IMG/VR virus record: IMGVR_UViG_2802429064_000003
DNA: 64,000 bases
Origin: a virus
Reading direction: 5' to 3' (one strand)
Both the position numbers and the translations under genes were made by a program. The notes under the pieces were generated by a model, which saw nothing but the letters and a program-made list of their open reading frames with translations, was not told where the DNA came from and did not search any database. Below, piece by piece: positions 39,382 to 41,383 of this stretch (within the stretch, counting starts at the first letter, position 1; each line of letters begins with the position of its first letter).

Positions 39382-41383
39382 TCAGCTAACGGCGAGATCG
39401 ATCTTGAATGTGCGGATCAGTTCGTCGATGGCGCCGTTGACATCGTCAGTCGTGAGTAGCAGTAGATCCAGATCAGTCAGGGTCAACAATTCCGCGCCAG
39501 CGAGTCGACTCGCAGCACGATGTTGCGCGCGCTCACAGATGCTGGAAGCGAAGCGCCCGTTGCCGAGTACGTCGAGCATCGATGATCCACGACCGTTGAG
39601 CGTGGCGCGGAGCTTCGTAGCGGTCTCAAGGAACCTCTCACGTGCCCCGGCGTCGATCACTCGGCCGCTCTGTTCTGCATGCCGAACGAGAATTTCCCAA
39701 AGTTGTTCGGAATCTGCAGGGGCGAAACGAATCTGGTGCTGCAGGCGAGTGCGGACACTGGGATTGTCGTTGAAGAACCGCTCGAGGGATGGTTCATCGC
39801 CGCTGAATATCACTACAAGTTCGCCTTTGTTGCCGTCCATGAAGTCCAGCAAGGCGCTCAAGGCATCTGCGCCGAAGGGGTCTCCTCCAAATCCTCGCTG
39901 CTGAATGAGTTCATGCGCGTTCTCCAAGAGGATGACCCCGCCCCGTGCTTCTTCCAGGACTTTCCGTGTCTTTACTGCTGATTCACCCTCGACGGTGCCG
40001 ACCAATGAAGACCGGTTCGCCTGCACGAGGCTATCCCTTGTGGTGACACCGGCCCGGAACAGCTCGTGTGAAAGCGCCTTTGCCGCCAGTGTTTTCCCTG
40101 TTCCCGACGGCCCGGTGAATGCGAAGTTCATGGCACGAGGGGAGCGCGGCATGCCGCGCCGCACCAGCTCTGCCTCGATGCGTGCTGAGGCGATCAGGGC
40201 GCGGCTCTGATCCTTGAAATCGTCCAAGCCGATCAACGTGTCGAAACCCCAACGGCGCTTCGGGAGTTGAATGATCTGATAGCTCGGGCGCGGCATGGAC
40301 ACTACGACTTTGAGCAGTTCCTGTACGTACTCAGCTGGCGAGGAAATCCAGAAGATCCGCAGTGACGTAAGGGCGCCAGCTCCGACAGCGGGGAGCGTGT
40401 GGAGGAGGGCAGATCCGATCGGCTGGCCGTGAAGAGTCGAGGCATCGGCGCCGAACAATGTCCGGCTGCGCGTTGGCGAGCCCGTAACCAGACTCAGGCT
40501 CGAAGTGACGTGCTGGCTTAGTTCGGAATCAAAATTACCTTGATCGATGAGCAGAACGTGTATGCCCAGTGACCGGCCGACCCTGAGCACGCGCAAGATG
40601 CGCTTTTCGAGCGACTCGGTATTGCGCACAACGGTACGTACTTCTTCGATCGCAACTAGAAGATCCGGCAACGGATCGGCGCTGCTGGCTTCCACCAGTT
40701 GGCGATACTCGCCTATGTCTTTTACTCCGTGTCTGGTGATTCGATCAGCGCGGCGGGCGATCTCGGCATCCAACTGGTCCAACAGGGCCGTCAGACCTGC
40801 TCGATCTGTTGATGAATCTGAGAGCCAGGCCGCGGTATGGGGCAGCTGTGCAAGTCGATCGAAATACGGGTGGTGCACACCGCCGCCGATGAGGACGAAC
40901 TGTAGGCGGTCAGGGCTGTATAGCGCTGCCAGGCCGGTGAGCAAGACTTCGCTTGCAACCGACCTGCCGCTGCCGGTGCGTCCAGTGATCAACACGTGGG
41001 GGCCGTTGCCGCCCAGTTTGGCCTCGGCGAGATCTAGCCAGACCGATTCTGGGGAATCGCTGAACTTGAAATTGTCATCGACGCTCATTCCGATAGGAAC
41101 TCGCAGGCTCTGTTCGGTGTCGGAATTGGCCCAGCGGGCTGCGAGTTCGTTGGCGGTTGGGATGCCGCCGAGCGCGCGTAGCCACGCCTGCGGGCCTGCC
41201 GGGTCGTCCCCGTCTGCCAGGGCAGTTGCCGACATCGGCGGCGGACCTGCCGGTGTATCGGACGCGGCGATCGGAACTAGGTCTTGGTCTCGAACGATTT
41301 CGAGAGCCTGCTGATATTTGACTCCCGGGTGCGCTGCCATGTACTCGCGGGCGCTCTTCTTGAGGCGTGCTGAATCGACCATG
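39382..41383 (-). CDS. Fusion ATPase: N-terminal FtsK/SpoIIIE-like (EccC-like) P-loop domain plus C-terminal CbbX/CfxQ-type AAA+ domain (EccA-like)
   Basis: GGAGGT RBS before the ATG at 41383. The N-terminal half has GPHVLITGRTGSGRS and a Walker B GIHVLLIDQ. The C-terminal half has FTGPSGTGKT...VILLENAHEL...DFMDG...LVVIFSG, typical of CbbX-family AAA proteins. Confidence 0.7.

Follow-up and report, generated by a model that had tools for sequence, protein, structure and literature searches.

A gene that joins EccC-like and EccA-type ATPase modules

We examined a 64,000-nucleotide (nt) stretch of IMG/VR virus record IMGVR_UViG_2802429064_000003, referred to below at its full length as the window. 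Nearly all of it (1..62200) belongs to one large integrated element of Mycobacteroides abscessus (M. abscessus), which extends past the left edge of the window and measures at least ~84 kb. One minus-strand gene of this element encodes a single polypeptide in which an FtsK/SpoIIIE module resembling the EccC ATPase of type VII secretion systems (T7SSs) is fused to an AAA+ module of the EccA type. The gene and its modules lie as follows (aa, amino acids).

39382..41382, minus strand: coding sequence (CDS) of the fusion ATPase, 666 aa plus stop, ATG start; N-terminal motif, linker, FtsK module, linker, AAA+ module with lid
41284..41382, minus strand: N-terminal motif, residues 1-33, modelled as a two-helix hairpin, invariant in the family
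40396..41208, minus strand: FtsK/SpoIIIE module, residues 59-329, matching EccCa (D1)
39412..40242, minus strand: CbbX/SpoVK/EccA-type AAA+ module with AAA_lid_6, residues 381-657

Counted from the first GTG, the open reading frame (ORF) spans 39382..41442. We take the ATG at 41382 to be the real start because GGAGG lies 8 nt upstream of it, because all homologues open with an identical motif at residues 2-4, and because a 1-nt indel upstream disrupts the longer GTG frame in two alleles. A first-pass annotation had placed a 667-aa product at 39382-41383; the locus was correct, with the end 1 nt too far and the protein one residue too long.

The N-terminal motif, S.R.K...R.[YH]M..HP...YQ.AL..V, heads all members of the family, whether FtsK-only, AAA-only or fused, with one copy per locus. 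It matched no Pfam or NCBIfam family and no PDB profile. Residues 34-75 form a Pro/Ala-rich linker of low model confidence, and residues 330-378 form the second linker. Hydropathy identified no transmembrane (TM)-like or hydrophobic segment (maximum KD19 1.27), and the protein is predicted to be soluble.

Domain identity of the fusion

Pfam placed FtsK_SpoIIIE at residues 116-261 (1e-18), AAA at 422-531 (2.8e-15) and AAA_lid_6 at 587-648, and NCBIfam placed EccCa at 59-329 (7e-38) and EccA at 381-657 (3.5e-51). Among the curated families, the AAA+ module scored highest with EccA (174 bits, 3.5e-51), followed by SpoVK (121 bits, 4.6e-35) and CbbX (112 bits, 2.1e-32). PDB sequence matches were to EccA1 (4.4e-39), T. 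curvata EccC (2e-35, best on D1) and CbbX (2.7e-30). The AlphaFold2 (AF2) model had a mean predicted local distance difference test (pLDDT) score of 65, with 75-91 in the AAA+ half and 58-83 in the FtsK core. Foldseek with this model ranked CbbX best (1.6e-19), followed by EccC and EssC. Both domains were recovered far beyond chance, and the EccC-like/EccA-like fusion is real. The single-chain architecture proposed in the first-pass annotation is thus borne out by Pfam, NCBIfam, PDB sequences and Foldseek; the N-terminal half is FtsK-like, specifically EccC-D1-like, and not the generic AAA domain that the annotation had named as the outcome speaking against it.

The protein nevertheless stayed below all family cut-offs because single domains alone match. 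It reached 130.8 bits against 509 for TIGR03924 and 87.9 against 346.6 for TIGR03925 (EccC), and 174.4 against 466.65 for TIGR03922 (EccA), where only profile positions 276-557 matched. An EccC has TM helices and three FtsK-like domains, with a canonical Walker A Lys and Walker B Asp-Glu in D1, whereas the fusion has one FtsK module and the target allele lacks these canonical residues. The AAA+ domain with its AAA_lid_6 is closest to EccA among the curated families; no tetratricopeptide repeat (TPR) was matched by Pfam or NCBIfam, and the N-terminal half is FtsK-like instead. Scores for DNA translocases were marginal (FtsK NF007615, E=0.022; TraB NF041214, 24 bits and 1e-5 vs a cut-off of 800), and Pfam at E<=1 detected no FtsK gamma/winged helix-turn-helix (wHTH) domain. 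Judged by these profiles, the fusion is not an EccC, not an EccA, and not FtsK or TraB.

Relationship to the EccB/EccC pair of the element

Beyond the left edge of the window, at a distance of about 6-12 kb, the element carries the gene for EccB (576 aa, PF05108), followed by that for a 1426-aa EccC-like protein (P0175) with a TM segment at 35-62 and three P-loop modules. The element's EccB also has a TM segment, unlike the fusion. The eccB and EccC-like pair is present in the element of both M. abscessus and Tsukamurella.

The FtsK module of the target aligned best to D1 of P0175 (31% identity, 2e-27), and the GNGPH....GRTGSGKS signature of that D1 also marks the target module. Long forms of the family, which carry two FtsK modules before the AAA+ module, are 45-50% identical to P0175 over D1-D2 (E 1e-150 to 1e-164). 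In these, FtsK-1 looks active and FtsK-2 is degenerate (GGPKSGRS, VAIDG), mirroring the D1/D2 pattern of EccC. From the best alignment and the D1-D2 identity of the long forms we interpret the family as a soluble duplicate of the element's EccC modules, and the FtsK module of the target looks like a duplicate or paralogue of this kind. The family appears to have gained the N-terminal hairpin and the C-terminal EccA-type domain, and the M. abscessus form to have lost the D2-like module.

An FtsK/SpoIIIE domain in an integrated element with an integrase could also belong to a stand-alone DNA translocase or coupling protein of the TraB/FtsK/type IV coupling protein (T4CP) kind, with a DNA-binding hairpin, that moves the double-stranded DNA of the element in conjugation or segregation. 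No relaxase is annotated in the related element, and relaxase-free FtsK-type transfer is known in actinomycetes (PMC12803027, PMC7478629). PHROG matches to phage FtsK-like proteins and a weak match to a terminase family fit this explanation too, as do FtsK-only family members on mobilizable plasmids, where they adjoin HTH proteins. However, the EccCa score far exceeds those of TraB and FtsK proper, neither a gamma/wHTH domain (Pfam, E<=1) nor a membrane anchor (hydropathy) was found, and the target allele has Arg for the Walker A Lys. With the closest paralogue being the EccC-like protein that adjoins eccB, we consider a DNA pump unlikely.

Catalytic motifs and selection

The nucleotide-binding and hydrolysis motifs of the two modules were located at these positions.

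40960-40983, minus strand: FtsK Walker A, GRTGSGRS, residues 134-141; R140 replaces Lys
40642-40662, minus strand: FtsK Walker B, LLVAIEE, residues 241-247
40090-40113, minus strand: AAA+ Walker A, GPSGTGKT, canonical, residues 424-431
39919-39936, minus strand: AAA+ Walker B, VILLEN, residues 483-488; E487-N488 replaces D-E

The P-loops of both modules are kept throughout the relatives. In the FtsK module, the Lys-to-Arg change in Walker A is limited to the target sub-lineage (the target and the 94%-identical P0003), and Walker B reads DE, EE or DD among relatives. The AAA+ Walker B is ILLEN in the target vs FIDE in EccA1 and CbbX. It is DE in one relative only (P0030) and otherwise DS, DN, DD, EN, or HD with an 11-residue deletion; the Arg-finger region varies too. 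Given this degeneration of Walker B and the Arg finger, the AAA+ module of most of the family looks like a nucleotide binder with predicted impairment of hydrolysis.

The gene is under purifying selection. Across four M. abscessus alleles, the ratio of nonsynonymous to synonymous divergence (dN/dS, Nei-Gojobori) was 0.21-0.33 overall, 0.18-0.48 in the FtsK module and 0.03-0.29 in the AAA+ module, and the overall values indicate that the fusion gene is maintained. Divergence was mosaic: between the target and P0003, dS was 0.05 in the AAA+ half and 0.64 in the first linker. The 5' leader was conserved as well.

41383..41719, no strand assigned: intergenic region between the fusion gene and the divergent Band_7 gene, with GGAGG 8 nt before the ATG

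Taken with the first ~110 nt of the CDS (41284..41719 in all), this region shows ~97% identity between alleles whose dS elsewhere is 0.5-0.6. The leader matched no Rfam family and showed no excess fold (z-score -0.1). Its identity may reflect either regulatory constraint or a recombination boundary.

Non-canonical hydrolysis residues in both modules, together with the retained P-loops, would also suit a catalytically dead decoy of EccC D1 and EccA that co-assembles with the host's chromosomal ESX-3 or ESX-4 machinery, or with the system of an incoming element, and modulates or blocks it for host takeover or exclusion. Such a decoy would be soluble, as the fusion is predicted to be, and would remain under purifying selection; the target allele is also the commonest in public assemblies (its exact sequence was found in 78 indexed blocks vs 1-4 contigs for other alleles). 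On the other hand, the Lys-to-Arg change occurs in one sub-lineage only, with GKS and DE retained in the FtsK module of relatives. Among EccC proteins, the one most closely related to the fusion is encoded by the element itself and not by a host ESX system, and linkage to element genes is conserved. A decoy role therefore seems improbable to us.

Distribution of the fusion

A word-indexed search of 5.8 billion proteins recovered full-length relatives in M. abscessus only. These formed nine 90%-identity clusters (665-668 aa, 75-96% identity) with intact frames, and the database name, where given, was 'FtsK/SpoIIIE domain-containing protein'. HMMER against 1.84 billion representatives returned 29,434 matches, mostly tandem SpoVK-like proteins. 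Among the best 150 of these, both modules were present in three 50%-identity clusters: the M. abscessus family, a 654-aa metagenomic protein (P0071) and the 1008-aa P0030, which has the N-FtsK-FtsK-AAA form. This count rests on the best 150 matches, and weaker independent fusions are possible.

At a threshold of at least 80% of the fusion protein covered, tblastn matched 0 of 50,697 phage records and 1 of 72,556 records labelled as plasmids. A scan for the N-terminal motif in one genome per species (185,579 species) matched 10 stretches; the long form was confirmed for three of these, in M. syngnathidarum, Mycobacterium sp. 48b and an actinomycete metagenome-assembled genome (MAG). The Tsukamurella element also encodes a long-form ATPase, of 1006 aa. 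Single-module proteins start with the motif as well: among FtsK-only forms, the 431-aa P0138 and a 357-aa product of an M. dioxanotrophicus plasmid, and among AAA-only forms, the 346-aa P0141 and a 435-aa product of an M. intracellulare plasmid. The fusion is therefore rare and not annotated as such, which answers the first-pass call to look for the architecture in other genomes, and it is built from known kinds of ATPase.

Other candidates were rejected. The FtsK-only and AAA-only plasmid genes are not adjacent to each other and do not form a Rosetta-stone pair. The 521-aa gene that follows the FtsK-only gene in a related element (L009) is not an AAA+ partner; its product resembles FtsK and the 628-aa protein described below. 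P0014 (Pseudactinotalea) is not a second FtsK+AAA fusion and has an EssC-like arrangement of FHA and two FtsK domains.

Degenerate catalytic motifs might also point to a decaying pseudogene, or the fusion might be an artefact of assembly or annotation. Yet the identical target protein is present on at least 24 independent contigs, frames are intact in all nine clusters, dN/dS lies at 0.2-0.3, and the same architecture recurs in distant relatives at 28-38% identity. We regard this explanation as extremely improbable.

Neighbouring genes and a conserved SLT/EspG-like operon

The genes adjoining the fusion gene, and those of an operon downstream of it, are listed here.

41720..42655, plus strand: SPFH/Band_7 membrane protein, 311 aa, divergent from the fusion gene
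38875..39227, minus strand: two small ORFs (65 and 50 aa) directly downstream of the fusion gene, called as genes in other assemblies
31512..32339, minus strand: SLT-domain lytic transglycosylase, secreted (signal peptide), first operon gene
29238..31475, minus strand: 745-aa operon protein with a helical N-terminal part and Ala/Pro/Gln-rich linkers
27820..29190, minus strand: 456-aa operon protein with a predicted EspG-like fold (Foldseek of the AF2 model)
27448..27756, minus strand: 102-aa operon protein, one of a small pair conserved in three genera
27110..27409, minus strand: 99-aa operon protein, the other of the pair

The Band_7 gene adjoins the fusion gene in all M. abscessus alleles and only there; it is also present in the Tsukamurella element. 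The operon lies 7 kb downstream of the fusion gene in the window and 3 kb downstream in alleles without a helicase insertion. Genes for the SLT, large and 456-aa proteins occur at a distance of 3-12 kb from that for the ATPase in Tsukamurella, M. syngnathidarum, Mycobacterium sp. 48b and the MAG, and the small-protein pair is also found in Tsukamurella and Mycobacterium sp. 48b. The C-terminal region of the 745-aa protein (residues ~490-640) is strongly conserved, with many invariant columns in three genera, and has low-complexity stretches rich in Pro, Ala and Gln on either side; the protein has no significant PDB, family or structure match. By eye only, it recalls NlpC/P60-type hydrolases.

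Foldseek with the 456-aa protein returned EspG5, EspG3 and EspG1 at all of ranks 1-18 (E 8e-11 to 2e-6, prob 1.00), and the rank after this block had E=0.04. TM-scores on the target were 0.51-0.60 for 16 matches and 0.37-0.39 for two longer EspG1 chains. The model is confident mainly at residues ~280-450, and the protein had no Pfam or NCBIfam match and no PDB sequence match to EspG. Structural similarity thus predicts a T7SS substrate chaperone with an EspG-like fold. Its family, which is commoner than the fusion, comprises 48 clusters in Mycobacteroides, Mycolicibacterium and Mycobacterium, all named 'hypothetical'. The gene lies ~10 kb from the fusion gene, eccB and the EccC-like gene are ~45-65 kb away on the same element, and no contiguous ESX locus was seen.

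The first-pass annotation had also noted two WXG100-like genes 12 kb away. Two genes for ~100-aa proteins do lie 11.6-12.3 kb from the 3' end of the fusion gene, but they are not demonstrably WXG100 proteins. The 102-aa protein matched TIGR03930 weakly (E=0.035, 14.3 bits vs a cut-off of 44.85) and the 99-aa protein did not match it. Neither had a Pfam WXG100 match at E<=0.05, a literal WXG or a PDB profile match, and hhalign detected no relation between the two families. An h-x-G...A..F pattern is conserved in the 99-aa family.

The integrated element

Two further features of the element are relevant to its borders and to its FtsK-type proteins.

60949..62157, minus strand: tyrosine integrase at the right end of the element
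50062..51948, minus strand: 628-aa protein with a faint FtsK/EccCb-type P-loop

The integrase marks the right end because an identical integrase abuts host genes in other strains. Megablast of window segments 1-24, 34-46 and 44-64 kb against phage and plasmid collections left the element unmatched. Beyond the integrase and outside the element, 63189-64000 is 86.6% identical to gene 78 of prophage prophiGD05-1; this segment (63189..64000) encodes a four-TM DUF347-like protein and is flanked by host genes in other strains. Database gene calls were used, since a GC3-based caller was too noisy at this GC content.

The Pol I of the element is 38-40% identical to polymerases of Gordonia and Nocardia phages. 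Other genes encode RNase H, exonucleases, helicases with helicase-associated (HA) repeats and two WhiA-like proteins, and there are many small ORFs. Two large helicases (34088..38205 and 42562..45885, both plus strand) carry many tandem HA repeats of ~60 aa. As the 34088..38205 block is absent between the ATPase gene and the SLT operon in two alleles (L001 and L025), it represents an insertion/deletion polymorphism. The WhiA-like paralogues (LAGLIDADG + HTH; 12957..13910 and 15810..16841, both minus strand) adjoin a DEAD/ResIII helicase gene (16838..18811), and this trio is kept in related elements (L009 and Tsukamurella). No recognisable virion, relaxase or type IV secretion system (T4SS) genes were found in the portion of the element seen. 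The suggestion that a phage had repurposed the ATPase agrees with the phage-like replication genes, and remains unproven because no virion genes were seen.

A syntenic relative is present in Tsukamurella tyrosinosolvens NCTC13231 'plasmid 13' (NZ_LR134455.1), with a Pol I that is 65% identical. This record looks like a mislabelled chromosome fragment because it contains cobN, lnt, rbpA and uvrA. The Tsukamurella element is ~143 kb long, counted from an integrase at ~120.9 kb, and carries eccB, a split EccC-like gene, a DUF87 ATPase gene and the long-form ATPase gene.

The M. abscessus element encodes at least four FtsK-type proteins. One is a stand-alone 357-aa FtsK_SpoIIIE protein to the left of the window (5553..6626 in L013), which is 29% identical to the FtsK module of the fusion. 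In L009, the gene that directly follows that of the FtsK-only family member encodes a protein 42% identical to the 628-aa one, a hint that the latter may be functionally linked to ATPases with the N-terminal motif.

The element is also rich in genes for NAMPT + NUDIX, Macro and GmrSD_C proteins, RNA ligases, Thg1 and methylases. The NAMPT + NUDIX pair lies at 10..2285 (plus strand) and is preceded in the left flank (L013) by PRTase, RyR, Macro and GmrSD_C genes; the region is a NAD-salvage and anti-defence-like cluster typical of phages. This content might favour a reading in which the fusion is an NTPase of a defence or counter-defence module, unrelated to secretion, and the PADLOC models mad8 (9e-16) and SspH (4e-14) do match the FtsK module. 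These matches cover the generic P-loop module only, however, and no partner genes of those systems are adjacent; we rejected the PADLOC assignment as generic and lacking system context. The neighbours that are kept across three genera are those of the SLT/EspG-like operon, and Band_7 is adjacent in M. abscessus only. We see a slim chance that the fusion serves in defence.

Comparison with known systems

Among known proteins, the N-terminal module of the fusion is most similar to D1 of EccC/EssC (e.g. T. curvata EccC, PDB 4nh0), and the long forms share with EccC the order of a D1-like and then a degenerate D2-like module. In contrast to EccC and its three modules, the fusion lacks the TM/DUF region and the D3 substrate-receptor domain, begins with a hairpin unique to it and has an AAA+ domain at its C-terminus. 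EccCb1 of ESX-1 is likewise a soluble FtsK-type protein of the T7SS family. The AAA+ domain and lid of EccA (EccA1, PDB 9lur) are covered in full by the alignment with the C-terminal 280 residues. EccA differs in having an N-terminal TPR domain where the fusion has its FtsK module, and a Walker B with D-E vs E-N; most relatives of the fusion are also without the catalytic Glu.

CbbX (the red-type Rubisco activase) and SpoVK have the same AAA+ subfamily fold and lid, but the fusion has no Rubisco or sporulation context, differs in the N-terminal region and scores lower with them than with EccA. TraB and FtsK resemble it as FtsK/HerA-superfamily P-loop modules on actinobacterial integrative elements, but besides the marginal scores no DNA-recognition domain or membrane association was found.

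Mobile mycobacterial ESX systems resemble the element in that they, too, place T7SS genes on mobile DNA of Mycobacteriales, where these genes may contribute to transfer or host interaction. Those systems have complete loci (EccA-E, MycP, PE/PPE and Esx) with EccA and EccC as separate proteins, as in pRAW/ESX-P, pS2b (PMC12803027), pMAB625 (PMC12995706), pMA07 (bioRxiv 10.64898/2026.01.26.701661) and ICEMyc226/pCBMA213 (PMC7478629). On the element of the fusion, only EccB, the EccC-like protein, the EspG-like protein and the fusion were found, plus phage-like replication genes. Neither the fusion nor the element is mentioned in PMC12803027, PMC12995706, PMC7478629 or bioRxiv 10.64898/2026.01.26.701661.

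'Mycobacterium phage Adler' was considered as a phage relative and rejected, as it has a conventional ESX-type locus with separate EccC and EccA. The 96-kb record (KC960489.1) is flagged UNVERIFIED_ORG and encodes a 1405-aa FtsK/EccC, two proteins of ~100 aa and a 633-aa EccA-like ATPase. In character, this record is closer to a plasmid with an ESX locus than to a phage.

A possible role in a reduced T7SS-like system

The T7SS connection drawn in the first-pass annotation is strengthened by the eccB and EccC-like genes on the same element and by the EspG-fold protein predicted in the conserved operon nearby. Its idea of a minimal secretion or translocation motor is weakened by the predicted solubility of the fusion, by the Arg in Walker A and the EN in Walker B of the target, and by the degenerate AAA+ module in most relatives. 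A nucleotide-binding adaptor or regulator would fit these features better than a translocase.

We therefore favour, with about even confidence, a reading in which the fusion is soluble and assists a reduced, element-borne T7SS-like system as an accessory ATPase-like protein or adaptor, over one in which it is a stand-alone motor. In ESX-1, the soluble EccCb1 joins EccCa1. By analogy, the fusion would use its EccC-like module or its hairpin to dock on, or co-assemble with, the ATPase stack that the element's EccC forms in the cytosol. Docked in this way, it would bring an EccA-type ring to the machine's base, and the ring could there receive or remodel chaperone-bound cargo. The protein would then act as a nucleotide-dependent adaptor or gate and not as a processive motor. 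Candidate cargo would be the envelope-directed proteins of the operon; alternatively, the system may serve transfer of the element.

Several observations weigh against a role as accessory adaptor. The fusion gene is ~45-65 kb from eccB/eccC and in a separate operon. No eccD, mycP or eccE was found in the ~84 kb seen of the M. abscessus element or among the annotated genes of its ~143-kb Tsukamurella relative, and neither the window nor its left flank encodes an EccD-like polytopic protein; by ESX standards the T7SS therefore lacks components, and it may be unable to secrete. The split forms on mycobacterial plasmids adjoin neither T7SS genes nor each other, and no SLT/EspG operon lies within 10 kb at a short-form locus from a metagenome (L008). 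The two small operon proteins are not demonstrably WXG100, and the AF2 model of the fusion, at a mean pLDDT of 65, is only moderate. The Arg for the Walker A Lys and the EN for DE could also mean loss of function in one or both modules of the target allele.

We further propose, more tentatively and with considerable doubt, that EccB, the EccC-like protein, the EspG-like protein and, as its cytosolic component, the soluble EccC-D1::EccA-type ATPase might together constitute an unrecognised reduced type VII-like system on giant integrative elements of Mycobacteriales, used for element transfer or for export of envelope-remodelling proteins. The fusion also draws attention to large integrated elements, a family so far undescribed, in Tsukamurella, in Mycobacterium and in the clinically important M. 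abscessus. These elements combine phage-style replication, anti-defence genes and a stripped-down T7SS-like set. Current prophage and plasmid catalogues miss them, and their genes are mostly annotated as hypothetical.

The function of EccA, and any contact that it makes with the EccC motor, remain open questions in T7SS biology. A fused EccC-like/EccA-like protein, with an EspG-fold protein encoded nearby and EccB and EccC on the same element, is comparative evidence that suggests joint action of the two ATPase types, and it offers a compact soluble construct for testing their cooperation. If the proposed reduced type VII-like system is real, the fusion would be a natural 'Rosetta stone' that places EccA-type rings in direct contact with the EccC ATPase stack, and such contact would settle where and how EccA works in ESX secretion.

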